NCBI GenBank assembly: GCA_045599485.1 | Contig: JAZRWA010000022.1 | Span: forward strand, 1-14,092 | Length of the DNA: 14,092 bases | Direction of reading: 5' to 3' | From: Clostridia bacterium | GTDB lineage: Bacteria; Bacillota; Clostridia; Christensenellales; Aristaeellaceae | Part shown: positions 1-14,092 of the stretch, in pieces | Numbering within the stretch: position 1 is the first letter of the stretch | Layout: every line of letters begins with the position of its first letter | Position numbers and translations under genes: made by a program | Notes under the pieces: generated by a model | The model's input: only the letters and a program-made list of their open reading frames with translations | Told to the model about the DNA's origin: nothing | The model's database searches: none

Positions 1-1
1 G

Positions 2-352
2 CGTCTGCTCAGGCGTGTGGTGCGTGACTATCTGACCCGCGGCGCCAGCCCCGAAAGGACGCTTTCCATGTGGAAGAGCGTACGCGCCGGCGAGGAGAAA
101 TGGATCTTCCCCTATCAGGAGCAGGCGGATGTGATCTTCAATACCGCTCTGCACTATGAACTGCCCGTGATGCGGCTGTACGCCTATGAGCTGCTGGAGA
201 AGATCACGCCCGATTTCAGTGAGTATTATCTGGCACGGGAGCTGGTGCGCATGCTCAATTATTTCCTGCCCATGCCCAGGGAAGCGCTGGAGGAGATCCC
301 GCCGCTTTCCATCCTGCGTGAGTTCATCGGCGGGAATACGTTTTACGAGTGA
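2..352 (+). CDS. Uridine/nucleoside kinase family protein, C-terminal fragment (5' end outside window)
   Basis: The frame is open from the window edge (RLLRRVVRDYLTRGASPERTLSMWKSVRAGEEKWIFPYQEQADVIFNTAL...ILREFIGGNTFYE). From memory this resembles the conserved C-terminal part of long uridine-kinase-like proteins of Clostridia. TGA stop at 350-352, followed by a hairpin terminator. Confidence 0.75.
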   Translation, partial: RLLRRVVRDYLTRGASPERTLSMWKSVRAGEEKWIFPYQEQADVIFNTALHYELPVMRLYAYELLEKITPDFSEYYLARELVRMLNYFLPMPREALEEIPPLSILREFIGGNTFYE

Positions 353-398
353 GAGGATGCACCTGAGAAAAGGAAGATTTTAACAGGACAAAACAAAA

Positions 399-447
399 CC
401 CTTGTCTGGAGGAAGTTCAACTTCCATCAGCACAAGGGTGTTTTATG
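399..447 (+). terminator. Rho-independent terminator candidate of the kinase-like gene
   Basis: Imperfect hairpin CCCTTGT (399-405) / ACAAGGG (432-438) with inner GGAAGT/ACTTCC pairing, followed by TGTTTTAT. It starts about 47 nt after the TGA. Confidence 0.6.
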
Positions 448-479
448 ATATAGATTGCCCTTTCTCGGAAGGGGTCAAA

Positions 480-524
480 GGGGGAACCATGCTTTCCGGC
501 TTGGGAAAGCGTGGTTCCCCCTTT
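480..524. terminator. Long perfect-ish hairpin between convergent genes (likely terminator of the minus-strand methyltransferase gene, possibly bidirectional)
   Basis: 18-bp stem GGGGGAACCATGCTTTCC (480-497) / GGAAAGCGTGGTTCCCCC (504-521) with one G-U pair and a 6-nt loop. A TTT run follows it on both strands. It lies about 15 nt downstream of the minus-strand TAA at 536-538. Confidence 0.6.
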
Positions 525-535
525 ATATACTCTCC

Positions 536-1339
536 TTACCGCCGTCCCAGCTGCCAGAAGGCCACAGCGCCGGCGGCAGCCACGTTCAGCGAATCCACCC
601 CGTGCGCCATGGGAATCAGCACGGTGTAATCACAGCCGCGGATGGTTTCCTCGCGCAGTCCGTTGCCTTCCGCCCCCAGCACCAGCGCCAGACGCTCCTA
701 TGCCATCAGCCGCGCGTCGTCCACGGCAATGGAACGCTTCGTCAGTGCCAATGCCGCCGAGGCAAAACCCAATGTCTTCAGCTCTCCCGCCACATCGTTG
801 GAGGGCAGGTACGCCCAAGGTACCTGAAAGACCGTGCCCATGCTGACACGTACGGCACGCCGGTGCAGCGGGTCACAGCAGGAGGGGCTCAGCAGCACCG
901 CCTCCATGCCCAGCGCGGCGGCGGAGCGGATCAGGGCGCCGATGTTGGTAGCGTCCGTCACGGCTTCCAGCACGGCGACGCGGCGCGCGCCCCGGCATGC
1001 CTCTCCGGCGGTGCGTTCGGGCGGCCGCTTCATCAGACAGCGGATGCAGCGGTCCGGCATGCAGCCGAGGATGTCGCCCAGCAGCGCATCGGGTCCGGTA
1101 TATACCGGTACGCTGTCATCACAGCGGGCCAAAGCCTCTGCCGCCTGCCCCGTGATGTGCTTTTTTTCCATCATAAAGGCCACGGGGGTGAGCCCCGCGT
1201 CCAGCGCGTGCAGCACCACTTTGCCGCTTTCCGCCATGAAAAGCGCTTCCCGGGGGCGCTGCAGGCTGCGCAGCTGCGCGTCGGTGCGCCGGAAGGGCTC
1301 CAGCTCCGGGGCGTTCGCATCCTTTACTTCAATGATCAT
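536..1339 (-). CDS. TrmH/SpoU family RNA 2'-O-methyltransferase, 267 codons if the in-frame TAG at complement(698..700) is decoded
   Basis: The track ORF 698..1339(-) ends ...SIAVDDARLMA at a TAG. The same frame continues ERLALVLGAEGNGLREETIRGCDYTVLIPMAHGVDSLNVAAAGAVAFWQLGRR to a TAA at 536-538. SpoU motif 1 (LEAVTDATNIGALIRSAAALG) is upstream of the TAG; motifs 2 and 3 (LVLGAEGNGL, IPM..GVDSLNVAAAGAVAFW) are downstream. GGAGG RBS at complement(1345..1349), 5 nt before the ATG. Confidence 0.85.
698..700 (-). other. In-frame TAG codon inside the TrmH-family gene (candidate sense/recoded UAG)
   Basis: Minus-strand reading ...CTG ATG GCA TAG GAG CGT CTG GCG CTG GTG CTG GGG GCG GAA GGC AAC... 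= L M A * E R L A L V L G A E G N. There is no frame change. Confidence 0.8.
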
Positions 1340-1368
1340 GGTGTCCTCCGCGGTGTTGTTCTGCGCCG

Positions 1369-1397
1369 ATTGTAATGCCGTGCCGCTCCGCTGTCAA
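1369..1397 (-). promoter_or_regulatory. Sigma-70/SigA-type promoter for the TrmH-family gene
   Basis: Minus strand: TTGACA (complement 1392-1397), 17-nt spacer, TACAAT (complement 1369-1374). It lies about 30 nt upstream of the ATG at 1339. Confidence 0.6.
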
Positions 1398-1415
1398 GTG
1401 CGATGCAGTTTTTGC

Positions 1416-1444
1416 TTTTATTCCGTGGGGTTTTATAGTATAAT
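1416..1444 (+). promoter_or_regulatory. Possible promoter for the PucR-type regulator gene (good -10, weak -35)
   Basis: TATAAT at 1439-1444. Only a weak -35 (TTTTAT, 1416-1421) sits at 17-nt spacing; TTGCTT at 1412-1417 would need a 21-nt spacer. Located in the divergent intergenic region. Confidence 0.35.
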
Positions 1445-1487
1445 GGATAAAATGATGTTTTTATGCCCGTGAAAGGAGAAGCAAAGC

Positions 1488-2537
1488 ATGGAGCAATCCG
1501 TTCTGGATGAGATCGGCGGCATTCTTTCCTCTTTGGACAGCCGCGTGCTGCTGCTGGATGCGTCGGGCACTTGTCTGGCCCCGTCCGCGGGGGAAAAAAT
1601 AACGCTGCCCAGGCATTTATCCTTCGGCGGCGTGGCGGAAAAAGACGGCAGGCTGTTTTTTGCTTCCGCCCGGGAGCCGCTGATCATTGCCTCCGATAAA
1701 CAGAACGGCGGCGATGTGCCGCTGATGGCGCTGCGGCTGTGCGAAAGCCTGCTGACGCGCCGGCGTACGGAGGGCGAAGGAAGCTTTTGGTACCGCCTGC
1801 TGACGGGCACACTTTCCGCCGGATAGACCGAAGCGTTGATCCGTGAGAACGGCATTGAGGACGCGCTGCGGGCGGTCATGATCCTGCAATTGCCTGCTTT
1901 GAAACATGGCACGGCGCAGGAAATGCTGGAGGCCAACCTGCCGCTGACCCCGGGACACGATGTGCTGGTGCCGCTCGACAGCCGCACGGCGGCGCTCATC
2001 AAGCCCGTTTCGGCGGGAGACAGCCCGCAGGACCTGATGGAATACGCCGAGGCGGTGCGTGAAACGCTGCTCAGCGAGGAAGGCGAAGACGCTGTGATCG
2101 CCGTAAGCGACATCATCGGCGAAGCCGCCGCGCTGCATGCCGCCTTTCAGCACGCGGGCGAAGCCATGGAAACAGGCCGTACCTTCCGCCCGGAAATGCG
2201 GGTCTACGGCTATGACGCGCTGCTGCTGGAGCGCTTTCTCAGCGATATTCCGCCCGAGACAGCGGCACGCTACCACCAACTGCTGTTCAACCGCCGCACC
2301 GCACGTGTGCTGACGGAGGAGATCCTGGACACAGTCAGCATGTTTTTTGAAAAGGACCTGAACCTGTCGGACACGGCCCGGCAGCTGTACATCCATCGCA
2401 ACACGCTGGTATACCGTCTGGATAAGATCCAGCGGCTGACCGGTCTGGATCTGAGAAAGTTTGATGATGCCGTGACCTTCCGCATGCTGCTTGAAATGAA
2501 AAAATGCGCAGAGAAGGGAAAGCACCCTACTGCCTGA
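1488..2537 (+). CDS. PucR/CdaR-family transcriptional regulator (C-terminal PucR HTH), 349 codons if the in-frame TAG at 1824..1826 is decoded
   Basis: Track ORFs 1488..1826 and 1836..2537 are in the same frame (348 nt apart). They read ...YRLLTGTLSAG * TEALIRENGIEDALRAV... The C-terminus carries the PucR-type HTH (LNLSDTARQLYIHRNTLVYRLDKIQRLTGLDLR). RBS AAAGGAGAA at 1472-1480, ATG at 1488, TGA stop at 2535-2537. Confidence 0.8.
1824..1826 (+). other. In-frame TAG codon inside the PucR-family gene (candidate sense/recoded UAG)
   Basis: GCC GGA TAG ACC GAA GCG TTG ATC CGT GAG AAC GGC = A G * T E A L I R E N G. The frame is unchanged, and the DNA-binding domain is encoded about 600 nt downstream. 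Confidence 0.75.
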
Positions 2538-2552
2538 CGGAGGAAAACAAAC

Positions 2553-3767
2553 ATGAAAAAACGGTTTTTTGCCCTGCTTTTATGCCTGGTGCTGTGCTGC
2601 TCCGCGGCTTTGGCGGACAGCGTTTTCGGCAACAACGGCGTGTTTGGCGTGGGCGGCACGGTCACCATTACCCGGGCGGAATACGAGCGCCTCAAGCAGT
2701 ATGAAAAGCTGGACGAGGTGCTGCAGTATATTGAAGCCTACTATTACAAAGAGCCCGACACCGGCGACATGATGGACATGGCCATTCAGGGCCTGCTGGC
2801 CGGCTTGAATGACCCCTATACCTTCTATTATGACGCCGAAGCCTGGGCGGACATGTGGGAGGAGGAAGAGGGCGAGTACACGGGTATCGGTCTGCAGCTG
2901 CTGGGCAGCTATCTGGACTACACCGTGACCATCACCCGTGTCTTCCGTGATACCCCCGCCGAAAAGGTGGGGCTGAGAAAGAATGACCTGCTGGTGCGTG
3001 TGGAGGACATCACCGTGACCACCGAGACCATGCAGAACGCCGTCAATGTGATGCGCGGCAAGGTGGGCGAAAGCGTGGAGGTGGAGGTGTACCGCGACGG
3101 CGAATACCTGACCTTTACGGTCGAACGCGCCGCCATCCACACCAACAATGTGGATTGGTGCATGCTGGATAACAACGTGGGCTATCTGATCCTGTACCAG
3201 TTCTCCACGGAATCGCTGCTGCAGGATTTCAAGACCGCATTGAAGGACCTGGAGGCGCAGGGCGCCAGGAGCCTGGTGCTGGATCTGCGTGACAACCCCG
3301 GCGGCTGGGTCAATGACGCCGTCGGTGTGGCGGATGTTTTCCTGGATAAAAAACTGGTGGTCTATTCCCGTACCCGTGACCAGGAACGCACCGATGAGCA
3401 GTATACCAAAGCCGGGGCGGATGATATTCCGCTGGTGGTGCTGATCAACGGCTCCTCCGCTTCGTCCAGCGAGATCTTGTCCGGCTGTCTGCAGGATTAC
3501 GGCCGCGCCGTCATCATGGGCAGCCAGAGCTTCGGCAAGGGCGTCATGCAGTATGTGATCGGCCTGTCCGATAACAAGACGGGCATGCAGTTTACCTTCT
3601 GCGAGTACTTTACCCCCAACGGCAACAGCGTGCACGGCATCGGCATTACCCCGGATATCGCGGTGGAAATGCCCGCCGATCTGAAAAACAAGCTGTTTGA
3701 GGTAGGCGACATGGCCGACCCGCAGCTGGCGGCGGCATGGGAAGAGGCCGTGCGCCTGCAGCAGTGA
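2553..3767 (+). CDS. S41 family C-terminal processing (tail-specific) protease, exported
   Basis: 404 aa. Signal peptide MKKRFFALLLCLVLCCSAALA/DS, a PDZ-like region, the S41 serine motif (LINGSSASSSEILSGCLQD) and the FGKG lysine motif. GGAGG at 2539-2543, TGA stop. Confidence 0.9.
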   Translation: MKKRFFALLLCLVLCCSAALADSVFGNNGVFGVGGTVTITRAEYERLKQYEKLDEVLQYIEAYYYKEPDTGDMMDMAIQGLLAGLNDPYTFYYDAEAWADMWEEEEGEYTGIGLQLLGSYLDYTVTITRVFRDTPAEKVGLRKNDLLVRVEDITVTTETMQNAVNVMRGKVGESVEVEVYRDGEYLTFTVERAAIHTNNVDWCMLDNNVGYLILYQFSTESLLQDFKTALKDLEAQGARSLVLDLRDNPGGWVNDAVGVADVFLDKKLVVYSRTRDQERTDEQYTKAGADDIPLVVLINGSSASSSEILSGCLQDYGRAVIMGSQSFGKGVMQYVIGLSDNKTGMQFTFCEYFTPNGNSVHGIGITPDIAVEMPADLKNKLFEVGDMADPQLAAAWEEAVRLQQ

Positions 3768-3779
3768 CGGGAGGTTCAA

Positions 3780-4742
3780 GTGAAAAAACGGATATCGACC
3801 TTTTTGCTGCTGATGCTGCTTGTGTCGCTGCTGTGCCCGGCGGTGCTGGCGGATGAGGTGATTCCCGCCCATGATAAGCACGAACGCCCCGAGATCGAGG
3901 GCATGGGGGAGGACGGTTTTCTGACACAGGCGGAGGCGGAATTTGTGCTGGCCGATGCAGAAGAAGGCCTGTGGATGTATGTCAGCGATGCCCTGCGCAT
4001 TGAAATTGACCGCTACACCGCCTCCAACCGCAAGCTGATCTGGTACACCGCGCACATATGGCAAAAGGAAGGGGACGGCATGCACACCTTCCTGGCCGAC
4101 CCGGCGCATCCCTTCGGTCTAGCGCTGCTGGTGGAGGAAATTGCCCGGCAGTATCAATTGGTGTTTGCCATCAATGGTGACTTTTTTGAGGATCGTTACC
4201 GTGAGGGCGAAAAGATCGGCTGCGTCATCAAAAACAAAGTGGTCATCAACCGCTATGCGCAGGAACTGGATAACCTGCCCACGCTGGATGTGCTGGCGCT
4301 GTTTGAGGACGGCACCATGAAATGCTTTAGGGCGCGCAGCAACAGCGCGGACAAATATCTGGCCATGGGCGTGCGCGACACCATCTGCTTCGGTCCCATT
4401 CTGGTGTCCGAGGGCAGCATCAATATGAAGCAGCTGGAGGAATACGGCCGCTCCCGCGAGCCGCGCACCGCGCTTGGCATGGTGGAAAACGGACATTATG
4501 TTGCCATCGTCTGCGAGGGACGCTCGGAGGAGAGCGACGGCCTGCGCCTGAGTGAGCTGGCCCCCCTGATGCAGGCGGAGGGCTGTGTGGAAGCGCTCAA
4601 CCTTGACGGCGGTCAGACCTCGGTCATCAGCTTTATGGGCGAAAAGCTCAATGCCACCGGTACCTTCCATAACAGCTCCAGACCGCGCCGCGTGACGGAT
4701 ATCGTGGGCATTGGCGTAAGCGATCTGGTTTCCGCCGAGTAA
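3780..4742 (+). CDS. Phosphodiester glycosidase family protein (NAGPA / DUF2233-like), exported, paralog 1
   Basis: 320 aa, GTG start 5 nt after GGGAGG (3769-3774). Signal peptide MKKRISTFLLLMLLVSLLCPAVLA/DE. Family-typical motifs: REPRTALG...GHYVAIVCEGR and EALNLDGGQTSV. TAA stop. Confidence 0.8.
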   Translation: MKKRISTFLLLMLLVSLLCPAVLADEVIPAHDKHERPEIEGMGEDGFLTQAEAEFVLADAEEGLWMYVSDALRIEIDRYTASNRKLIWYTAHIWQKEGDGMHTFLADPAHPFGLALLVEEIARQYQLVFAINGDFFEDRYREGEKIGCVIKNKVVINRYAQELDNLPTLDVLALFEDGTMKCFRARSNSADKYLAMGVRDTICFGPILVSEGSINMKQLEEYGRSREPRTALGMVENGHYVAIVCEGRSEESDGLRLSELAPLMQAEGCVEALNLDGGQTSVISFMGEKLNATGTFHNSSRPRRVTDIVGIGVSDLVSAE

Positions 4743-4766
4743 ACAACAGAGGAGAAAAACAACCAT

Positions 4767-5711
4767 ATGAAAAAAGCGCTGATGGCGCTGCTGCTTTTGC
4801 TTTCGGTGTGCGGCGGCGCGCTGGCGGATGTGCCGGTGAGAGCCAATGAGCCGTGTGCCCGCCCCGAGGTGGAAAACCTGGGGGAGGATGGCTATCTGAC
4901 CGAAACGGATGAGCTTGTGTTCATCGATGAAACGGCGGGACTGTGGTACTATGTCAGTGATGAGCTGCGCGTGGAGATCGACCGCTATACGGCCTCCGAC
5001 CGCAAGCTGATCTGGTATGTGGCGCATCTGTATCAGAAAACGCCCACTGGTCTGCGTACCGCGCTGGCAAATGAAAAAAAGCCCTACGATGACCGCATGT
5101 GGGTGTATGATCTGGCTGAGAGGGAAAAGATGGTCTTTGCCACCAACGGCGATTATTTTGCCACCCGTCTGGATGAATCCGCCGGTGTGGGCATCGTCAT
5201 CCGTCATGGACGGGTCATCAGCTCCAAGGGCAAAGCGAGCAGCAAGATCCCCACGCGGGAGATCATCGCCATGTATGAGGACGGCAGCATGAAGTGCTAT
5301 GGCGCCAACGAATACAAGGCGTCCTCTCTGGCGGAAGCCGGCGTGCGTGATACGCTGTGCTTTGGCCCCATTCTGGTACGGGATGGGCAGGTGGAGACCA
5401 AACGCCTGGACGAGATGGGCTCCTCCCGTGAGCCGCGGTGCGCTATCGGCATGGTGGAGCCCGGCCATTATGTGGCCATCCTGACGGAAGGCCGTACGGA
5501 TGACTCGATCGGCGCACGTCTTTTGACGCTGGGCGATATGATGGCGGCGGAGGGCTGTGTGGAGGCGCTGAACCTGGACGGCGGACAATCGGCTGTCATG
5601 TGCTTCATGGGCAAAAAGATCAGCTCCACCGGGCATACTTCCACCAGCACCCAGAGCCGCAAGATGACCGACATTGTCGGCATCGGCTACAGTGAACTTG
5701 TAGGACAGTGA
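4767..5711 (+). CDS. Phosphodiester glycosidase family protein (NAGPA / DUF2233-like), exported, paralog 2
   Basis: 314 aa. Signal peptide MKKALMALLLLLSVCGGALA/DV. Collinear with the upstream paralog (EIDRYTASDRKLIWYVAHLY, REPRCAIGMVEPGHYVAILTEGR, AEGCVEALNLDGGQSAV). TGA stop. Confidence 0.8.
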   Translation: MKKALMALLLLLSVCGGALADVPVRANEPCARPEVENLGEDGYLTETDELVFIDETAGLWYYVSDELRVEIDRYTASDRKLIWYVAHLYQKTPTGLRTALANEKKPYDDRMWVYDLAEREKMVFATNGDYFATRLDESAGVGIVIRHGRVISSKGKASSKIPTREIIAMYEDGSMKCYGANEYKASSLAEAGVRDTLCFGPILVRDGQVETKRLDEMGSSREPRCAIGMVEPGHYVAILTEGRTDDSIGARLLTLGDMMAAEGCVEALNLDGGQSAVMCFMGKKISSTGHTSTSTQSRKMTDIVGIGYSELVGQ

Positions 5712-5713
5712 AT

Positions 5714-6892
5714 ATGAAAAAAATGCTGATGTATGCCGTGCTGCTGCTGACGCTGCTGATGACGGCGGCGTGTGCAGAGACGGCGGCGGAGCGTACCGCC
5801 TCCTGCACATTCAAGCTGGGAAAAACGGCTTTGACACAGAAGGAACGCGGCAAGCTGCTGGACAGGGATTATTCCACCCATTATGATATCGCGAGCCGCA
5901 AAACACTGACCATCGAAAGCGAAAAGCAGCTGGGCGGCATGTACCTGCAGATCTTTGATGTGGTGCGCGCGCTGACCATGGAAGTGAAAACCAACGGCGA
6001 ATGGCAGGAGTACTGCGTCAATCCCCAGCATCTGAGCGACTGGTACGCTTTCCCGGATAAGACCACGGCAGTGCGCATTTACAACGCCGATAAGGAAAAC
6101 AAGCTCAAGCTGGCGGAAGTGACCCTGTACGGCCCCGGGGACAAGCCCGAAAAGGTACCGCAGTGGATCGATCTGGAGAAGTGCGACCTGATGCTTCTGG
6201 CGACGCATCCCGATGACGATCTGCTGTGGTTCGGCGGCCTGATGCCCACCTACGCGGGGGAAAGGGGCTACAAGGTGCAGGTGGTGTACATGGTGCCCAC
6301 CGGCGGACTGCGCAAGCTGGAAATGCTGGACGCCCTGTGGACCTGCGGCGTCACGGCTTATCCCGGCCTGCTCAATCTGCGCGACCAGCGCGGCAAAAAC
6401 CTCAGTGAGCAGTACTCCCTGTGGGGACAGAAGACCGTCACCACCAAGGTGGTGGAGGCCATCCGCCGCTATAAGCCGTAGGTGCTGGTCACGCATGGTC
6501 TGGGCGGTGAATACGGACACCCCGGTCATAAGGCCGCGGCGGATACCGTGACGCGCGCCGTCGGTTATGCCGCGGATAAAAGCAACCGCCCCGCCTCAGT
6601 GGAAAAGTACGGTGTGTGGCAGGTCAAAAAGGTCTATCTGCATGAGTACAGCAAAAATCAGATCGAGATGGACTGGCATGTGCCGTTGGAAGCCTTTGGC
6701 GGCAAGGACAGCCTGACCGTCGCGCAGGAGGCCATGCTCTGCCACGCCAGCCAGGTCAAGGGCGGCTGGATGGTGGAGGACCACGGCAAGCATGATAATA
6801 CGCTTTTCGGTCTTTACAGCACCACGGTGGGTGAGGACATCGAGAAGAATGATTTTATGGAAAATATCGTCCTGGAGAACAATACACCGTAA
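5714..6892 (+). CDS. PIG-L/LmbE family deacetylase with lipoprotein-type signal and extra N-terminal domain, 392 codons if the in-frame TAG at 6479..6481 is decoded
   Basis: Track ORFs 5708..6481 and 6482..6892 are contiguous in the same frame: ...VVEAIRRYKP * VLVTHGLGGEYGHPGHKAAA... The PIG-L motif LLATHPDDDLLWFGG is upstream of the TAG and the HP(G/D)H motif is downstream. The likely start is ATG 5714 (MKKMLMYAVLLLTLLMTAAC, lipobox-like); GTG 5708 is an alternative. TAA stop at 6890-6892. Confidence 0.8.
6479..6481 (+). other. In-frame TAG codon inside the PIG-L deacetylase gene (candidate sense/recoded UAG)
   Basis: TAT AAG CCG TAG GTG CTG GTC ACG CAT GGT = Y K P * V L V T H G. It sits inside the conserved 'R.xKP-x-VvvTH' stretch of the family. 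Confidence 0.8.
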
Positions 6893-6898
6893 CGCATG

Positions 6899-6928
6899 GA
6901 AAGGGAGTCCGGATGAGGGCTCCCTTTC
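6899..6928 (+). terminator. Stem-loop after the PIG-L gene (possible terminator or mRNA-end structure; lacks a clear U-tract)
   Basis: GAAAGGGAG (6899-6907) pairs with CTCCCTTTC (6920-6928), extendable by TCC/GGG. It starts 7 nt after the TAA. It is followed by TGACAAAC, which is not T-rich. Confidence 0.4.
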
Positions 6929-6967
6929 TGACAAACAGGATTTGAACATTTCTTGCTCGGTTGTTAT

Positions 6968-6996
6968 TTGAAATTTTTTTCGGGAGAGTATATAAT
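6968..6996 (+). promoter_or_regulatory. Sigma-70/SigA-type promoter for the glycosyltransferase gene
   Basis: TTGAAA (6968-6973), 17-nt spacer, TATAAT (6991-6996), in an AT-rich intergenic region about 30 nt upstream of the ATG at 7027. Confidence 0.55.
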
Positions 6997-7026
6997 AGAA
7001 AAAAGACCGAAAAAAGGAGGTGCACG

Positions 7027-8298
7027 ATGGAACCAAGGATCAGAACAGCTTTGCTGAACGACTCTTTTCCGCCGCAGATCGACGGCGTGGCCAACGCGGT
7101 GATCAATTATGCCTCGCTGCTGCATGGCCGCGGGGATGATGTCATGGTGATCACGCCGGCCTATCCCGGTGTGGAGGATCATTATGATTATGAGGTGCTG
7201 CGCTATTCCAGTGTGGACACCACCAAGATCATCGGTTATCGTGCCGGTTACCCTTTTTCGGCTTCCGCTGTGCAGCGGGTGGTGGATTTTGCCCCTGATA
7301 TTCTGCACACGCATTGCCCCGTCTCTTCGCTGCTGATGGCCCGCGTGGTGCGGTAGAGGACCGGTGCGCCCATTGTGTTTACCTATCATACCAAGTTTGA
7401 TATCGATATCCGCACCGCCATCAAAAGCAAGGCACTGCAGGACAGCCTGATCCGCGCCATTCTGTGGAACATTGAGGGCGCCGATGAGGTATGGACGGTC
7501 AGCCGCGGCGCGGGAGAGAATCTGGAATCCATCGGCTATCAGGGCAAGTGGCGCGTGATGGACAACGGTGTTGATTTTGCCCGCGGTCACGCCTCGATGG
7601 AAAAACAGAACGAGATCAGCCGCCTGCATAACCTGACCGATCACGCACCGGTGTTTTTGTTTACCGGCCGTCTGCGCTGGTACAAGGGCATCCGCATCAT
7701 TCTTTAGGGTCTGGCCAAGGCCAAAGCCCGCGGCGCCAAGTTTCATATGCTGTTTGTGGGCGATGGCAGCGACCGCGGTGAGATCGAGGAGCTGGCGCAA
7801 AAGCTGGGGCTGACCGATCAATGCGTCTTTGTGGGCGCGGTGCAGGATCGTGAGCTGCTGCGGGCGTATTACAGCCGTGCCGATCTGTTCCTGTTCCCGT
7901 CTACCTTTGATACCAACGGCATCGTGGTGCGCGAGGCGGCCGCCTGCGGTCTGGGTGCCGTGCTGGTCAAGGGCAGCTGTGCCGCCGAGGGCATTACCGA
8001 TGGACAGAATGGCATCCTCATCGGTGAAAATGCCGACAGTCTGTGCGCGGCGGTGCTGTTTGCCTGCTCCCACCGCAATGAAGTGCGGCAGGTCGGCCTG
8101 CATGCGGAGAATGAGATCTATCTTTCCTGGGAGGATTCGGTGGCGCGGGCTCGTACCCGTTATGCCGAGCTGCTGGAGGAGCGCAAAGCAAACCCGCCGG
8201 AAAAGCGGCATGATGCCTTTCCTTTCCTGTCCGACATTGTGGAGGGCGCCGGCCGCCTGCAGCGGTGGCATCGCCTGCTGAACGCCAAGCTGAAGTGA
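7027..8298 (+). CDS. Family 4 (GT-B) glycosyltransferase, 423 codons if the two in-frame TAGs (7354..7356, 7705..7707) are decoded
   Basis: Track ORFs 6961..7356, 7375..7707 and 7747..8298 all share one frame. They read ...CPVSSLLMARVVR * RTGAPIVFTYHTKFDIDI... and ...GRLRWYKGIRIIL * GLAKAKARGAKFHMLFVGDGSD... The N-terminus is GT4-like (LNDSFPPQIDGVANAV). The C-terminal Glycos_transf_1-like domain has FPSTFDTNGIVVREAAACG. AAGGAGG at 7013-7019, ATG at 7027, TGA stop at 8296-8298. Confidence 0.85.
7354..7356 (+). other. In-frame TAG codon #1 inside the GT4 gene (candidate sense/recoded UAG)
   Basis: GTG GTG CGG TAG AGG ACC GGT GCG CCC ATT GTG TTT ACC TAT CAT = V V R * R T G A P I V F T Y H. No frame change. 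Confidence 0.8.
7705..7707 (+). other. In-frame TAG codon #2 inside the GT4 gene (candidate sense/recoded UAG)
   Basis: ATC ATT CTT TAG GGT CTG GCC AAG GCC AAA = I I L * G L A K A K. It lies in the 'KG(l/i)xxLlxAl' helix that opens the C-terminal Rossmann domain. Confidence 0.8.
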
Positions 8299-8328
8299 TT
8301 CCGCTTCAATAAACAATCATCAAAACAG

Positions 8329-8361
8329 GCACCTTTTGCGATCGGGCAAAGGTGCTTTTTG
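8329..8361 (+). terminator. Rho-independent terminator of the glycosyltransferase gene
   Basis: GCACCTTTTGC (8329-8339) pairs with GCAAAGGTGC (8346-8355) with one bulged T, followed by TTTTTG. Confidence 0.8.
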
Positions 8362-8381
8362 CTTGCGGCGGCATTTTTGCG

Positions 8382-8414
8382 CAAAACAAAAATCCTTGAG
8401 GAAATCTCAAGGAT
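8382..8414 (-). terminator. Rho-independent terminator of the tRNA-Ser pair
   Basis: Minus strand: ATCCTTGAG-ATTTC-CTCAAGGAT (9-bp stem, 8392-8414) followed by TTTTGTTTTG. It begins 4 nt after the tRNA 3' CCA. Confidence 0.8.
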
Positions 8415-8418
8415 CTTG

Positions 8419-8510
8419 TGGCGGAGAAGGAGAGATTTGAACTCTCGCTGCCGTTATCCAGCACTACTCCCTTAGCAGGGGAGCCCCTTCGGCCTCTTGG
8501 GTACTTCTCC
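8419..8510 (-). tRNA. tRNA-Ser (anticodon GCU), class II with long variable arm, CCA encoded
   Basis: Minus strand folded by hand: GGAGAAG-TA-CCC..GGG-G-CTCCC-CTGCTAA-GGGAG-(20-nt variable arm)-GAGAG-TTCAAAT-CTCTC-CTTCTCC-G-CCA. The anticodon loop CU-GCU-AA reads AGY. Confidence 0.9.
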
Positions 8511-8532
8511 ATCGGTCGGTAATCGGCAAAAC

Positions 8533-8621
8533 TGGCGGAGAGAGAGGGATTCGAACCCCCGGTGCCTTTCGACATCACCAGTTTTCAAGACTGGCGCCTT
8601 AAACCGCTCGGCCATCTCTCC
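8533..8621 (-). tRNA. tRNA-Ser (anticodon UGA), class II with long variable arm, CCA encoded
   Basis: Minus strand folded by hand: GGAGAGA-TG-GCC..GGC-G-CCAGT-CTTGAAA-ACTGG-(variable arm)-GGGGG-TTCGAAT-CCCTC-TCTCTCC-G-CCA. The anticodon loop CU-UGA-AA reads UCN. Confidence 0.9.
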
Positions 8622-8659
8622 GTACCGGCTCGATAGCCTGTCTGCCAATGTACTGATAA

Positions 8660-8688
8660 AGTATAGCAGTTTTTTTCCCTGTTGTCAA
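8660..8688 (-). promoter_or_regulatory. Sigma-70/SigA-type promoter for the tRNA-Ser pair
   Basis: Minus strand: TTGACA (complement 8683-8688), 17-nt spacer, TATACT (complement 8660-8665). It lies about 40 nt upstream of the tRNA 5' end at 8621. Confidence 0.6.
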
Positions 8689-8764
8689 TGCCCGTTCGCT
8701 AATTTCTTTTGAGGCGCGGGGGAAGGGAAAACGCGGCTTTTTTTTCGCAAAATGCCCATAATTA

Positions 8765-8794
8765 TTGACATAATACGGTGTTTTATCCTATAAT
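8765..8794 (+). promoter_or_regulatory. Sigma-70/SigA-type promoter for prfC-typA
   Basis: TTGACA (8765-8770), 18-nt spacer, TATAAT (8789-8794). A small hairpin TGTGGC-AAC-GCCACA (8802-8816) sits just before the RBS GGAAGGAGGG. Confidence 0.65.
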
Positions 8795-8831
8795 AACTGA
8801 TTGTGGCAACGCCACAGGAAGGAGGGCACTT

Positions 8832-10421
8832 ATGCTCGCAGAGGAAGTAGCCCGCAGAAGAACATTTGCTATTATCTCCCATCCCGACGCCGGCAAAACC
8901 ACATTGACCGAAAAACTGCTGCTGTACGGCGGCGCCATCCGCCAGGCCGGTTCCGTCAAGGCCCGCAAGGCAGAACGCCACGCGACCAGCGACTGGATGG
9001 AGATCGAAAAGCAGCGCGGCATCTCCGTTACCTCCAGTGCCATGCAGTTCTCCTTCAACGGTTTTGATATCAACATTCTCGATACCCCCGGCCATCAGGA
9101 CTTTTCCGAGGATACCTACCGCGTGCTGGTGGCAGCGGACAGCGCTGTGATGCTCATCGACGCCGCCAAGGGCGTGGAGGAGCAGACCATCAAGCTGTTC
9201 AAGGTGTGCCGTATGCGCGGCATTCCGATTTTTACCTTTGTCAACAAGATGGACCGTGCCGCCAAGGATCCCTTCGCCCTGATGGACGAACTGGAAAACG
9301 TGCTTGGCATCCACGCCTGCCCCATCAACTGGCCCATTGGCACCGACGGCGATTTTCAGGGCGTGTATCACCGTGATACCCGCATGATCGAATTGTATTC
9401 CGGCGGCGATCACGGCAAGAACAAGGCGCAGAAGACCGATGTTTCTCTGGACGATCCCGACCTGGGAACGCTGCTGGAAAAGCACTACATCAACCGCCTG
9501 AATGACGAGATCGAGCTGCTGGACGAGGCCGGCGACGATTTTGATCTGGAGGCCGTGCGCGAAGGCAGGCTGACCCCCATGTTCTTTGGCAGCGCCGTCA
9601 CCAACTTCGGTGTGGAGCCTTTCCTGGAGCGGTTCCTGTCCTACACCACGCCGCCCCTGCCCCGCGAGAGCAATGAGGGCTGGGTGCAGCCCGATGATGA
9701 ACGCTTCAGCGGCTTCATCTTCAAAATTCAGGCCAACATGAACCCCGCCCACCGTGACCGTCTGGCCTTCCTGCGCATCGTCAGCGGCCAGTTCACCAAA
9801 GGCATGACGGTGTGGCATTCCGGCACCGGCAAGGAGATCCAGGTCAAGCAGCCGCAGCAGTTTATGGCAGATGAGCGTGAAGGCATCGAAACGGCCTGGC
9901 CCGGCGATATCATCGGTCTGTTCGATCCCGGTATTTATCATCTGGGCGACACGCTGTGCGTGGGCCGCAAGATCCGCTTCCAGAAGATCCCCGTGTTTGC
10001 GCCCGAGCATTTTGCCCGTGTGCGTCCGCTGGATTCGATGAAGCGCAAGCAGTTTGTCAAGGGCATCATGCAGCTGAGCGAGGAAGGCGCCATCCAGACC
10101 TTCCGCCGCACCGAGACCGGCATTGAGGATTTCCTTGTCGGCGTGGTCGGTGTGCTGCAGTTTGATGTGCTGACCTACCGCCTCAAGAGTGAGTACGGTG
10201 TCGATCTGGTACTGGAGCAGTTGCCCTTCCGCTATGTGCGTTGGGTGACCGCCACCGAGATCCCCGTGCCCGACCTGAAGCTGACCAGCACCTCCGGCCG
10301 TGCTTTTGACGCCGAGGAGCGGGATGTACTGCTGTTTGAAAACGAGTGGAGCATCCGTCTGGCACAGGAAAACAACAAGGGCCTGGAGCTGGCCGAACTG
10401 GCTCCCCGCGAGATCTACTGA
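8832..10421 (+). CDS. prfC: Peptide chain release factor 3 (RF3), translational GTPase
   Basis: 529 aa starting MLAEEVARRRTFAIISHPDAGKTTLTEKLLLYGGAIRQAGSVKARK...DWMEIEKQRGISVTSS...DTPGHQDF..NKMDR. This is the characteristic RF3 N-terminus with G motifs, and the length is RF3-like. ATG 8832 lies 5 nt after GGAAGGAGGG. TGA stop at 10419-10421. Confidence 0.9.
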   Translation: MLAEEVARRRTFAIISHPDAGKTTLTEKLLLYGGAIRQAGSVKARKAERHATSDWMEIEKQRGISVTSSAMQFSFNGFDINILDTPGHQDFSEDTYRVLVAADSAVMLIDAAKGVEEQTIKLFKVCRMRGIPIFTFVNKMDRAAKDPFALMDELENVLGIHACPINWPIGTDGDFQGVYHRDTRMIELYSGGDHGKNKAQKTDVSLDDPDLGTLLEKHYINRLNDEIELLDEAGDDFDLEAVREGRLTPMFFGSAVTNFGVEPFLERFLSYTTPPLPRESNEGWVQPDDERFSGFIFKIQANMNPAHRDRLAFLRIVSGQFTKGMTVWHSGTGKEIQVKQPQQFMADEREGIETAWPGDIIGLFDPGIYHLGDTLCVGRKIRFQKIPVFAPEHFARVRPLDSMKRKQFVKGIMQLSEEGAIQTFRRTETGIEDFLVGVVGVLQFDVLTYRLKSEYGVDLVLEQLPFRYVRWVTATEIPVPDLKLTSTSGRAFDAEERDVLLFENEWSIRLAQENNKGLELAELAPREIY

Positions 10422-10439
10422 TAGAAAGTGTGAAACTGC

Positions 10440-12266
10440 ATGATTCGTTCTGATATCCGCAACATTGCGATTATCGCCCACGTTGACCACGGCAAGACCT
10501 CCCTGGTCAACGAAATGCTCAAGCAGGGCGGCGTTTTCCGTGCCAATCAGGAGGTGGCTGACCGCGTCATGGACTCCAACGATCTGGAGCGCGAGCGCGG
10601 CATCACCATTCTGTCCAAAAACACGGCGGTGCACTACGGCGATGTCAAGATCAACATCGTCGACACCCCCGGCCACGCCGACTTTGGCGGCGAGGTGGAG
10701 CGCGTGCTCAAAATGGTGGACGGCGTGCTGCTGCTGGTGGACAGCTTTGAAGGTCCCATGCCGCAGACCCGCTTCGTGCTGTCCAAGGCGCTGGCGCTGA
10801 ACCTGCCCGTGCTGATCTGCATCAACAAGATCGACCGTCCCGACGCCCGCTGCGGCGAGGTGGTGGACGAGATCCTCGATCTGCTGATCGACCTGAACGC
10901 CGATCCCGAAACGCTGGAGCGCCCCATCCTGTATGCTTCTGCCCGCAAGGGTACCTGTACGCTGGATCTGGAGCAGCCCGGCACCGACCTGCGTCCGCTG
11001 TTTGAAGCCATCCTCAAGTACATTCCCGCCCCCGAGGGCGAGATGGATGGCCCTGCGCAGGTGCTGATCTCCACCATTGACTACAGCGAATACGTGGGCC
11101 GTATCGGCATCGGCCGCATCAGCCGCGGCAGCCTGAGATCCGGTCAGATGGTGGTGCGCTGCAACTATCTGGATGACAAGGTGACGCCCCCGTGGCGCTT
11201 GACCGAGCTGAGCACCTTTGACGGCCTCAAGCGTATCCCGACCGATCAGATGGCCATGGGCGATATCGTGGCGCTGACGGGTCTGCAGGATATCAGCATC
11301 GGTGATACGGTGTGTCAGCCCGATACGGTGGAGCCCCTGCCCTTTGTGACCATCAGCGAGCCCACGGTGACCATGACCTTCTCGGTCAACGATTCGCCCT
11401 TTGCCGGCCGCGAAGGCCAGTTTGTGACGAGCCGTCACCTGCGTGCCCGTCTCTATCGTGAACTGCAGACCGATATGTCCCTGCGCGTCAAGGACGGCGA
11501 AACGCCCGATTGCTTTGAGGTGTGCGGACGCGGTGAGCTGCATCTGTCCATTCTGATCGAGACCATGCGCCGTCAGGGCTATGAGTTCCAGGTGTCCAAA
11601 CCCGAGGTCATCTACAAGGAGATCGACGGCGTATCCTGCGAGCCCATTGAGCGCATGGTGGCGGATGTGCCCTCCGCTTATGCCGGCGCCGTCATCGAAA
11701 AGATCGGCCGCCGCCGCGGCACGCTGGAAAGCATGGACGGCACCGACCGTGTGCGCCTGGAGTTCCTGGTGCCCAGCCGCGGACTGTTTGGCTACCGCAG
11801 TGAGTTTTTGACCGATACCCGCGGCGAAGGCGTGATGAGCTCGGTATTTGAAAAGTACGAGCCCTTCCGCGGCGACATTCCGCACCGCGCTGTGGGCGCC
11901 CTGATCGTGCACGAAACGGGCGAGACCACGACCTATGGTCTGTTCTACGCGCAGGAGCGCGGCACGCTGTTCATGGGCAATCAGGTGCCTGTGTACGCCG
12001 GTCAGATCTGCGGCGCAAGCAGCCGCCCCGGCGATATCCCCGTCAATGTTTGCCGCAAAAAGCATGTCAACAACATCCGCAACAGCTCTGCCGCCGAAGA
12101 CAGCATGCGCCTGGTCAGCGTGCATCCGCTGACGCTGGAGGAGTGCCTGGAGTTTATCGACAGCGATGAGCTGCTTGAGATCACGCCCAAGACCCTGCGC
12201 ATGCGCAAGCGTGTGCTGAGCCATGAGCAGCGCATGAAGAACGCTGCCCGCGGCATCAAGTGCTGA
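10440..12266 (+). CDS. typA: Translational GTPase TypA/BipA
   Basis: 608 aa. [24 protein letters not shown]..., [37 protein letters not shown], and a C-terminal BipA-type domain. TGA stop. Confidence 0.92.
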
Positions 12267-12868
12267 CGCCGCTGCTTTCCGCCATAGGCATAGCAGTTTG
12301 CCTGCCGCTGTTTATGCGGCTGAAAAGAAAGGCAAACGTGCCGATGGCTGCGGTGCTGGCAGCCAAATGCGGCGGCACGGCGATGGCGGCGCTGATGGCC
12401 CTTCAGGGTGCGCTGCGGCTGAACACCGCGGGAGCATGGCTGATGTTTGCCGCCGCAGTGGTGTGCGTCGTTGCCGATGGGGTGCTGCATGTGCGCTTTT
12501 TTGCCGGCGGCATCCTGTTTGCCCTGGGGCATGTGCTGTACATGATCTCCTTCTGTTTGCGGGGATTGCCGGGCTGGCAGAGCGCTGTGATGTTTGCGCT
12601 GCTTGCCGCGTCCGCGATGGCGTTTATCCGCATACAGAACGAAAAGCCGCAGCCCTTCATTGTGCCCTACGCGCTGGTGCTGTGCCTGATGACCGCCATG
12701 TCCTTTTCAAGAGGTCCCCTGTGCTTTGCCGGGGCGCTGCTGTTTGCCTTTTCGGATGGCATGCTGCTGTGGCGCATGGAAGGGCATCACAGTGAAGCCT
12801 CCGACTGGGTCGCCATGGGCAGCTATTACGCCGCGCAGTATTTGCTGGCATTGTCGCTGCTACGGTGA
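12260..12868 (+). CDS. YhhN-family (lysoplasmalogenase-like, TMEM86-type) integral membrane protein
   Basis: About 202 aa, multi-pass hydrophobic, with YhhN-like motifs (ILFALGHVLYM, GALLFAFSDGMLLW). The GTG start at 12260 overlaps the typA TGA (GTGCTGA). An internal ATG start at about 12314 cannot be excluded. TGA stop. Confidence 0.65.
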   Translation: MLTPLLSAIGIAVCLPLFMRLKRKANVPMAAVLAAKCGGTAMAALMALQGALRLNTAGAWLMFAAAVVCVVADGVLHVRFFAGGILFALGHVLYMISFCLRGLPGWQSAVMFALLAASAMAFIRIQNEKPQPFIVPYALVLCLMTAMSFSRGPLCFAGALLFAFSDGMLLWRMEGHHSEASDWVAMGSYYAAQYLLALSLLR

Positions 12869-12886
12869 AAAAGGGGCAAAAAAGAC

Positions 12887-12916
12887 TTGTCAAGGAACCA
12901 CTTTGTGTGGTATAAT
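12887..12916 (+). promoter_or_regulatory. Sigma-70/SigA-type promoter (extended -10) for rplS
   Basis: TTGTCA (12887-12892), 18-nt spacer ending in TGG, TATAAT (12911-12916). It leaves a leader of about 95 nt before the rplS ATG. Confidence 0.55.
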
Positions 12917-13014
12917 TACCCTTGCGTAAACGGATGGTCCGCTTTCGGACAGCAACGGTCTGTACCTGACCGGTCCGGAATGAACATCTATGAGGGAAGG
13001 AGGAACTATTCAAA

Positions 13015-13365
13015 ATGAGCGAAATTATCAAGAGCATTGAAAATGCGCAGCTTCGTACCGATCGTCCCGCATTCAACGTTGGCGACACCGTGCGTGTGCA
13101 GGTCAAGGTTGTTGAAGGTACCCGCGAGCGTCTGCAGGCGTTCGAAGGTGTTGTGATTGCCAAGCGCAATGGCTCCTGCCGTGAGACCTTTACGGTCCGC
13201 CGCGTGAGCTACGGCATCGGCGTGGAACGTACGTTCCCGCTGCATAGCCCCCGTGTGGACAGCATTACTGTTGTCCGTAAGGGCAAGGTGCGCCGCGCCA
13301 AGCTGTATTATCTGCGTGGTCTGCAGGGCAAGGCTGCCAAGATCAAGGACATCACCCGCGAATAA
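13015..13365 (+). CDS. rplS: 50S ribosomal protein L19
   Basis: 116 aa: [111 protein letters not shown]. This is a canonical L19. GAAGGAGG RBS, TAA stop. Confidence 0.95.
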
Positions 13366-13382
13366 TCAAAGGTCGTCCTTTC

Positions 13383-13417
13383 AGAGGAAGAGGAGCAATC
13401 CTTTTCCTCTTTTTTTC
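13383..13417 (+). terminator. Rho-independent terminator of rplS
   Basis: AGAGGAAGAGGA (13383-13394), GCAA loop, TCCTTTTCCTCT (13399-13410). 12-bp stem with one G-U pair, followed by TTTTTTC. Confidence 0.85.
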
Positions 13418-13447
13418 TCAGTGGAGTATCTTGAGGAGGTTCAGTTG

Positions 13448-14092
13448 ATGTATAAAAGAATGATGGTTTTGCTGTTGGCACTGCTGCTGTTTGGCACAGC
13501 GGCTTTGGCGGACAGTGATGCTTCCATTGAGTTTCGCTCTGTTCCGTGGGGAACATCGGTAATGGAAACCTGTGCGCGGATCTTGCAGGCGGCAAAAGAC
13601 GGCAATACGCTCACTGCGGAAGCGATGGCAGCGAATAGCGTGGAAGGCGCCACGTTCCTTTCTGTGCTGACCGACTGGAAGGGGGATATGGTGCCTGTGC
13701 CAATGATCGCACAGGGACCGTGTTTCAAGCTGGTTGCCACAGACCGTGTGAGCCTGAAGATGGCCGGGCATGATGTTGACACCCTGTGGCTGGGTTTTGT
13801 CAGGGAGCAGGGCGAATGGAGCCTGGCGACGGTACTGATCGGCCTGAAAGCCGGCAGCGGTACCGATGCACAGTTTGAGGATCTGTCCGCAAAGCTGACC
13901 CAAGTGTATGGCGACAGCCATGAGAAGAACGGTTATGCCTGGTGGGAAGGAAAGGACAGCACCATGGTGGGGCTGGTGGCGCAAAACAGGGACGCCTGGT
14001 ATATGAACGCATTGAGCGCGGATGCCTCCCTGTGCTATGTGAATGTGCTGATGTACGCGAAAGTGTACAGCATGGAGGCGGTGGAAAACATG
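13448..14092 (+). CDS. Exported hypothetical protein, N-terminal 215 codons (3' end outside window)
   Basis: Translated by hand: ATG 13448 lies 8 nt after GGAGG (13435-13439). MYKRMMVLLLALLLFGTAALA/DSDASIEFRSVPWG... is open with no stop to the window end, which is why it is missing from the ORF track. Typical Sec signal peptide. No family recognised. Confidence 0.7.
   Translation, partial: MYKRMMVLLLALLLFGTAALADSDASIEFRSVPWGTSVMETCARILQAAKDGNTLTAEAMAANSVEGATFLSVLTDWKGDMVPVPMIAQGPCFKLVATDRVSLKMAGHDVDTLWLGFVREQGEWSLATVLIGLKAGSGTDAQFEDLSAKLTQVYGDSHEKNGYAWWEGKDSTMVGLVAQNRDAWYMNALSADASLCYVNVLMYAKVYSMEAVENM

Follow-up and report, generated by a model that had tools for sequence, protein, structure and literature searches.

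Does UAG still terminate translation in a bacterium in which no gene end visible on a whole contig carries the codon TAG? The question is raised by the window analysed here, which is the entire contig C22 (14,092 bp) of a metagenome-assembled genome (MAG) from a Clostridia bacterium, GenBank assembly GCA_045599485.1. This genome, labelled G000, comprises 2.13 Mb on 117 contigs at 55.8% GC and is estimated to be 82% complete with 1.7% contamination. The 3' end can be seen for twelve genes of the window, of which eight stop at TGA, four at TAA and none at TAG. Judging from the sequences, UAG in G000 and in its one sister species, G001 (94% amino-acid identity), is very probably not a stop but a rare sense codon, which would most likely specify glutamate (Glu). 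We also consider it quite probable that the two species use a natural bacterial code in which release factor 1 (RF1) has been deleted, all TAG terminators have been replaced, and UAG has been captured for Glu by a derivative of tRNA-Glu.

The initial annotation of the window had taken the lack of TAG terminators as the complement expected if UAG no longer terminates, while rating zero of twelve as only weakly significant on its own. All twelve ends and their stop codons were confirmed, and the caution was well placed. Indeed, the count is weaker still than had been assumed, because congeners that possess RF1 use TAG at just 2.9% (G007) and 4.8% (G005) of their ends, so that twelve ends without TAG have a probability of 0.70 or 0.55, respectively. 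The window count is correct yet uninformative alone. Terminal codons were tabulated genome-wide at C-termini anchored by homologs, the check that the same annotation had proposed, with an end counted as anchored when the C-termini of an ortholog pair agree to within 5 residues. At the 519 ends anchored by the RF1-bearing congener G007 (1.66 Mb compared), G000 uses TGA 265 times, TAA 254 times and TAG never, whereas G007 ends the same genes at TAA (325), TGA (179) and TAG (15, or 2.9%). The chance of 0/519 at this rate is about 2.5e-7. A further 124 ends are anchored by G005, which belongs to the sister clade and has RF1 (0.39 Mb compared), and they include six TAG (4.8%) in G005 vs none in G000 (P about 2e-3). 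All 21 TAG ends of the relatives (15 from G007 and 6 from G005) are TGA or TAA at the same place in G000; in particular, the 15 of G007 correspond to 12 TGA and 3 TAA, and the GT4 glycosyltransferase gene of the window is among them. A TAG share like that of the relatives that use translation table 11 is thus not found at homologous C-termini, and the earlier proposal gains from the genome the support that the window could not give. When the genes of G000 are called by a codon model with TAG as sense, 791 end at TGA, the commonest terminator, and 703 (47%) at TAA.

Stop codon use varies within the genus: G007 has 63% TAA, 34% TGA and 3% TAG, while TAA and TGA are used at about 1:1 in G005 and in G000. 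Five orthologous ends in the window are TAA in G007 and TGA in G000. A shift from TAA to TGA driven by the loss of RF1 was considered and rejected. Compared with G007, 136 ends have changed from TAA to TGA vs 62 in reverse, but G005, which has RF1, already stands at 60:58, and its TAA/TGA differences from G000 number 30 one way and 24 the other. Because the ratio in G005 is already about 1:1, the shift is not specific to the lineage without RF1; it predates or is independent of the loss of RF1.

A profile search for class I release factors identified RF2 in G000 and no RF1. UAG is read by RF1 alone, whereas RF2 acts on UAA and UGA. The place from which the RF1 gene, prfA, is missing can be located. 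In G007, lepA is followed by prfA, a spacer of about 945 bp and topB (topoisomerase III), and the gene order is the same in another congener, G012. In G000, the TGA of lepA is followed by 18 nt, including GGAG, and then by the start codon of topB. The junction in G001 is the same, with 94% identity over 1 kb. Since the junction of lepA and topB without prfA is present in G000 and repeated in G001, the absence of RF1 is not an assembly gap. The spacer between prfA and topB in G007 (C40:2807-3751) holds no convincing open reading frame (ORF) and is gone from G000 along with prfA. The cut-off of the prfA model was exceeded in 35 of the 41 genomes searched. Among the 16 other species of the genus, 12 lie above it, two have partial RF1 matches cut by contig ends, and G012 falls just below the tally despite a 481-bit match; G001 alone among them has no RF1 match at all. 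Outside the genus, G018, a 79% complete genome of the same family, also gave no match to the prfA model; even the usual cross-hit to RF2 is missing there, and incompleteness is the probable cause.

RF2 itself is encoded by one uninterrupted frame in each of the 18 genomes examined by tblastn, and its SPF and GGQ motifs are kept. Four substitutions are specific to the lineage (R16K, I81V, E304L and D352E), all of them outside the two motifs. An altered RF2 or a programmed frameshift in its gene was ruled out on the basis of the single open frame and the unchanged motifs. In the RF2 tree, G000 and G001 group together (100/100) as sister to seven RF1-bearing species (97/97) and, because the pair is nested inside the genus, the loss of RF1 is derived. 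As a side observation on translation termination, the transfer-messenger RNA of G000 (C47:82-430) carries a tag frame to which ARAGORN assigned no tag; its last codons, read by eye as GAC AAT AAC AGT TAC GCT TTC GCG GCC TAA, most plausibly encode DNNSYAFAA and end at TAA.

The in-frame occurrences of TAG provide the second line of evidence. There are 381 of them in 283 of the 1548 genes of at least 80 residues, spread evenly along the genes and present on 65 of the 71 contigs of at least 10 kb. Their frequency is 0.62 per 1000 codons, which is about 0.95% of Glu codons. The distance to the next TAA or TGA has a median of 199 codons after an in-frame TAG, as against 30 after real TAA stops and 16 after real TGA stops, and the coding score per codon is +0.22 past TAG, -0.28 past TAA and -0.38 past TGA. 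In-frame TAGs are found in mnmG, serS, queA, murA, hslU and scpB, where NCBIfam equivalog matches run across them. In genes with a G007 ortholog, 130 TAGs lie within the aligned region, 9 before it and 2 after it. The 9 ahead of the aligned region are probably upstream of the true start; one of the 2 after it lies in a long diverged tail and the other is a penultimate codon. A gene call of G000 with table 11 ends 213 ORFs (12.6%) at TAG and lowers the mean length from 363 to 323 residues. At the level of the genome, UAG can be regarded with high confidence as non-terminating.

The amino acid that would be inserted at UAG can be approached from the residues that face TAG in related proteins. 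At 141 TAG sites aligned to G007, the partner is Glu 72 times, Asp 23 times, Ala 9 times and Gln 8 times. By using G000's own substitution profile for each amino acid, log-likelihoods of -272 for Glu, -383 for Asp and -433 for Gln are obtained, which puts Glu ahead of Asp by 110 units and of Gln by 160. The 41 TAG sites that could be compared with G005 face Glu (23), Asp (6), Lys (3) and Gln (3). A comparison codon by codon within the pair of sister species gives a similar picture: TAGs of G000 correspond in G001 to TAG (6), GAA (4), GAG (4) and other codons (2), and TAGs of G001 correspond in G000 to TAG (6), GAG (5), GAA (3), CAG (2) and GAC (1). Because TAG, GAA and GAG exchange for one another in this way, TAG turns over as a synonym of GAA and GAG. 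On these alignments, the assignment of UAG to Glu appears strongly supported. With respect to site preference, Glu identity to G007 is 51% at TAG sites vs 60% at ordinary Glu codons, and in the first third of the data Asp stood opposite 24% of TAG sites; acidic positions that tolerate change may be favoured by TAG.

A candidate decoder is encoded in the genome. ARAGORN finds one tRNA with a CUA anticodon, tRNA(CUA), at C50:8748-8823 (L088:1501-1576), which folds into a canonical cloverleaf. It shares with the tRNA-Glu(CUC) of G000 the D-stem pairs G10-C25, U11-A24, C12-G23 and U13-G22, a D-loop of 9 nt, a variable loop of 4 nt without nucleotide 47, and G73, and its anticodon loop is that of tRNA-Glu(CUC) except for the change of C36 to A. 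Over its full length, it is matched best in relatives by genes of tRNA-Glu(CUC). The copy in G001 (L087) is 100% identical, while the upstream flank that the two species share is 88.7% identical; the tRNA is evidently under strong constraint. Downstream of it, G000 and G001 are unalignable, so that the gene borders on a variable stretch of accessory appearance (response regulator, transporters), and no clear orthologs of the surrounding 18 kb were found in G007. The tRNA is absent from the relatives other than G001, and exact and degenerate patterns of a Glu-type CUA tRNA were detected neither in 400 sampled genomes of the order nor in the metagenome contigs of JGI.

A phage origin of tRNA(CUA) was considered and found no support. 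Its 17-nt anticodon arm recurs on five viral contigs, on three of them as part of a CUA tRNA. In these phage tRNAs, from IMG/VR (L180:8238-8312, L181:2362-2436 and L182:5292-5380), the arm, GCGGTCTCTAAAATCGC, is the same as in the bacterial molecule; the acceptor, D and T arms show no relation to it, and two of the phage tRNAs look Gln-like. The large phage contigs with CUA tRNAs hold arrays of 15-28 tRNA genes, and one of these contigs measures 402 kb.

With regard to charging, G000 has a single gltX, the gene of glutamyl-tRNA synthetase (GluRS), as do its relatives. Among the identity elements of GluRS, tRNA(CUA) has those of the D-helix (U11-A24, U13-G22 and the lack of nucleotide 47) and G73, with A36 in place of C36. 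A dedicated second GluRS or a route through GatCAB was rejected, given the one gltX, the presence of glnS, the gene of glutaminyl-tRNA synthetase (GlnRS; C71:22285-23994), and the failure to find gatB in G000. An adaptive change in GluRS at the arginine that reads C36 was likewise rejected: the enzyme (C71:20815-22275) keeps the equivalent of Thermus thermophilus Arg358, which we take to be the residue that reads C36, and this residue is conserved in G000 and six relatives. A separate observation on GluRS concerns A453L, a lineage-specific substitution in an otherwise invariant C-terminal motif, LRIAISGLxSTPGG (LRIAISGLASTPGG); the G001 assembly is without GluRS, and the substitution is a lead only.

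In the mechanism that these data suggest, the ancestral state would be that in which TAG already made up only 3-5% of stops in the genus. The few TAG ends would have been replaced by TGA or TAA and RF1 would have been lost, with no order implied between the two. A copy of tRNA-Glu would have acquired the CUA anticodon and would be charged with glutamate by the single GluRS. TAG would now arise and vanish as a synonym of GAG and GAA.

The genes of the window were defined by a codon-usage gene call together with Pfam matches. Five in-frame TAGs lie inside four of them, namely those of TrmH (1), PucR (1), PIG-L (1) and GT4 (2), and seven of the twelve ends (typA, prfC, S41, GT4, PucR, rplS and the kinase-like gene) lie within 3 residues of the C-terminus of the G007 ortholog. 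The features are as follows.

2-352, + strand: 3' part of a kinase-like gene; weak PRK/uridine kinase match; TGA at 350-352; C-terminus within 1 residue of that of the G007 ortholog, which ends at TAA.
536-1339, - strand: TrmH/SpoU-type RNA methyltransferase; TAA at 536-538; in-frame TAG at 698-700; Pfam SpoU_methylase match (residues 121-261) across the TAG.
1488-2537, + strand: PucR-type regulator; in-frame TAG at 1824-1826, between Pfam HTH_30 and GGDEF_2, facing Glu in G007; TGA at 2535-2537; end as in the G007 ortholog.
2553-3767, + strand: S41 C-terminal processing peptidase (Pfam, gene call); TGA; end matches the G007 ortholog.
3780-4742, + strand: phosphodiester glycosidase (NAGPA) 1 (Pfam, gene call); TAA.
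4767-5711, + strand: phosphodiester glycosidase (NAGPA) 2 (Pfam, gene call); TGA.
5708-6892, + strand: PIG-L family deacetylase; in-frame TAG at 6479-6481 (residue 258), inside the Pfam PIG-L match (162-284); TAA at 6890-6892.
6961-8298, + strand: GT4 glycosyltransferase; probable start ATG at 7027; in-frame TAGs at 7354-7356 and 7705-7707, with Pfam domains across both; TGA at 8296-8298.
8419-8510 (GCU) and 8533-8621 (UGA), - strand: two tRNA-Ser genes (ARAGORN).
8778-10421, + strand: prfC, release factor 3, a class II factor that is kept (Pfam RF3_C, GTP_EFTU); TGA; end matches the G007 ortholog.
10440-12266, + strand: typA/bipA; TGA; 87.5% identity to the G007 ortholog, end at most 1 residue off.
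12260-12868, + strand: YhhN family membrane protein (Pfam, gene call); TGA.
13015-13365, + strand: rplS (ribosomal protein L19); TAA; end identical to that of the G007 ortholog.

For the GT4 gene, 14 sequences were aligned. Opposite its TAG at 7354-7356, all 12 of the 12 relatives with RF1 have Glu, and G001 likewise has TAG; opposite its TAG at 7705-7707, G001 has Glu and the other relatives have Glu or Asp. The TGA of the gene lies at the exact residue where the G007 ortholog ends at TAG. The initial annotation had also held the lack of TAG ends to be independent of the in-frame TAGs. This stands only in part: without read-through of TAG, the genes of TrmH, PucR, PIG-L and GT4 would not extend to their TGA or TAA, which makes the two signals not fully independent. 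These read-through ends are backed by the ortholog C-terminus for PucR and GT4 and by the Pfam match across TAG for TrmH and PIG-L.

A few further features of the window deserve mention. The TypA protein has 76-77% identity to its best-matching Clostridia MAGs, which come from gut and rumen. Since the GC content at third codon positions of G000 is about 0.75-0.8, long antisense ORFs are frequent and the length of an ORF is a poor guide to genes. An unbroken ORF of 1179 residues lies antisense to prfC and typA (8685-12224, - strand) and one of 450 residues, without a Pfam match, lies antisense to GT4 (6964-8316, - strand); both look like by-products of a third-position GC content of about 0.8 and not like genes. 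The 0.7 kb located 3' of rplS (13366-14092) are covered by two long ORFs (13253-14092, + strand; 13418-14092, - strand), for neither of which a Pfam match was found, and the codon model calls no gene there.

Some observations weigh against the view that UAG is a sense codon for Glu. Both genomes on which it is based, G000 and G001, are incomplete MAGs (82% and 74%, respectively). The sole ambiguous end found is that of an anchored gene (C8:979-1504) whose penultimate codon, TAG, directly precedes TAA; moreover, in 16 or 17 genes that have no ortholog for comparison, TAG is followed by a short stretch with no detectable coding signal. Asp makes up 16% of the partners at TAG sites vs 9% at ordinary Glu sites in the comparison with G007. 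On the side of charging, GluRS keeps the equivalent of the C36-reading arginine, whereas tRNA(CUA) carries A36, and the gene of GlnRS is present in G000. Amber suppressors engineered from tRNA-Glu are largely mischarged with Gln in Escherichia coli.

The rival that survives these data best, although improbable, agrees that UAG is a sense codon and holds that it is read as Gln, or as a mixture of Glu and Gln, with GlnRS charging tRNA(CUA), as is the case for many amber suppressors and for phages that have recoded TAG. The arrangement of the genes could fit such a route, as glnS adjoins gltX and no gatB was found, and so could the arginine that GluRS retains. In addition, G73, G10, the pair G2-C71 and a weak pair between G1 and U72 make tRNA(CUA) resemble GlnRS substrates in their identity elements. 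The sites themselves speak differently: Gln accounts for 5.7% of the partners of TAG, which is the ordinary rate at Glu codons, and its log-likelihood lies the 160 units below that of Glu already mentioned. Between G000 and G001, 16 exchanges link TAG with GAA or GAG, and 3 link it with CAA or CAG. The D-arm and the variable loop of tRNA(CUA) are also of the tRNA-Glu type, unlike those of the tRNA-Gln genes of G000. As for a mixture of Glu and Gln, nothing in these data appears to point to it.

Somewhat less can be said for a dual meaning of the codon, comparable to that in some ciliate and trypanosomatid codes, in which UAG would mostly be read through and would still end some genes by context or by means of a broadened RF2; we regard it as very unlikely. 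It could draw on 20 genes in which the tail past the last TAG is without coding signal and on the anchored gene with the penultimate TAG. Against it, no factor for UAG is present, and the SPF motif of RF2 and its surroundings are unchanged. TAGs do not pile up near gene ends, as they occur inside the last six codons in 2 of 1494 genes vs 6.1 expected under even placement. Of the 20 candidates, three have orthologs, and homology continues past the TAG in all three; for one of these, murA, this was confirmed by a second method, the NCBIfam match also extending past TAG. Finally, all 21 TAG ends of the relatives are replaced in G000.

It is extremely unlikely that G000 uses the standard code with TAG simply as a rare stop that is missing from the twelve window ends by chance. 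The window count alone cannot reject this possibility, given its probabilities of 0.70 or 0.55. It is contradicted by the 0/519 anchored ends as against 15/519 in the orthologs, by the clean synteny with which prfA has been excised in two species, by the 381 in-frame TAGs across which coding signal and homology continue, and by the 213 genes that table 11 would end at TAG with the accompanying fall in mean length. That the pattern is an artefact (contamination by a recoded phage or eukaryote, assembly error or pseudogenes) or reflects pyrrolysine is scarcely credible: MAGs can be contaminated (here 1.7%) and ARAGORN labels any CUA tRNA 'Pyl', but 65 of the 71 large contigs carry TAGs, which occur in bacterial housekeeping genes, the independently assembled G001 shares 6 of 16 TAG positions together with tRNA(CUA), the phage CUA tRNAs with the same 17-nt anticodon arm differ elsewhere, no PylS was found in G000 (best match 23.9 bits vs a cut-off of 178), and tRNA(CUA) has a canonical cloverleaf of the Glu type while the TAG sites face Glu.

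A reassignment of UAG to Glu in this lineage would have both parallels and differences with respect to the codes already described. To our knowledge, only three codes (tables 11, 4 and 25) are recognised in bacteria, and UGA is the codon concerned in all of their known stop reassignments. As in table 4 (UGA as Trp) and table 25 (UGA as Gly), the cognate class I factor has been lost, a tRNA with a changed anticodon has been gained, and annotation with table 11 breaks genes. Unlike in those two codes, the codon is UAG and not UGA, the factor lost is RF1 and not RF2, the amino acid would be Glu, and the genome has a moderately high GC content (56%) and is not reduced and AT-rich; TGA is the commonest terminator of G000, and RF2 is present and intact. 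The use of UAG for glutamate is known from peritrich ciliates (table 30) and Blastocrithidia nonstop (table 31). These are eukaryotes with a single eRF1 that also reassign UAA, whereas in G000 TAA is the terminator of 703 of 1494 genes and is found at 254 of the 519 anchored ends, and the code proposed here would involve the deletion of a dedicated factor, unlike in eukaryotes with their single eRF1. The TAG-recoded gut phages ('code 15', TAG as Gln) similarly use amber as a sense codon with a CUA tRNA in gut ecosystems. In G000, by contrast, the recoding is chromosomal, affects housekeeping genes and would specify Glu and not Gln, since Gln faces 8 of 141 TAG sites, which is the background at Glu codons.

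Decoding of UAG as sense throughout a prokaryotic genome has a further parallel in the archaeal code that reads all TAG as pyrrolysine, a code cited with the year 2025 in the gTranslate paper (PMC13695967). The archaeal code needs PylS and tRNA-Pyl; G000 has neither, and its TAG sites align with Glu. An artificial counterpart is offered by engineered E. coli without RF1 (C321.deltaA and later recoded strains; PMC11903333), in which all TAG terminators were replaced, prfA was deleted and UAG was freed. The difference is that the present code would be natural, that only about 3-5% of the ancestral stops would have been changed, and that the codon would have been captured by a canonical amino acid. 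No bacterial reassignment of UAG is listed in the screen of about 2.7 million assemblies published in 2026 (10.64898/2026.04.02.715157) or in the gTranslate paper of October 2026 (PMC13695967), and none to a canonical amino acid was found in the searchable literature.

If the interpretation is true, this would be the first chromosomal reassignment of UAG to a canonical amino acid in bacteria, confined so far to a pair of sister species from a single Clostridia genus of gut or rumen. It would indicate that capture of the amber codon is possible in a bacterium of free-living type whose genome is normal in size and GC content. The state from which such a capture would start, TAG as a stop at 3-5% of ends, is visible in living relatives and, because close species with RF1 are available for comparison, the order of the events of codon capture is testable. 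In practical terms, annotation with table 11 would truncate or split about 18% of the G000 genes of at least 80 residues (283/1548). A natural pair of Glu-type tRNA(CUA) and GluRS would be of interest for the engineering of genetic codes, a field in which engineered Glu amber suppressors are notoriously mischarged. For the bacteria themselves, the loss of RF1 should alter the interplay with phages that end their genes at TAG or that recode TAG.

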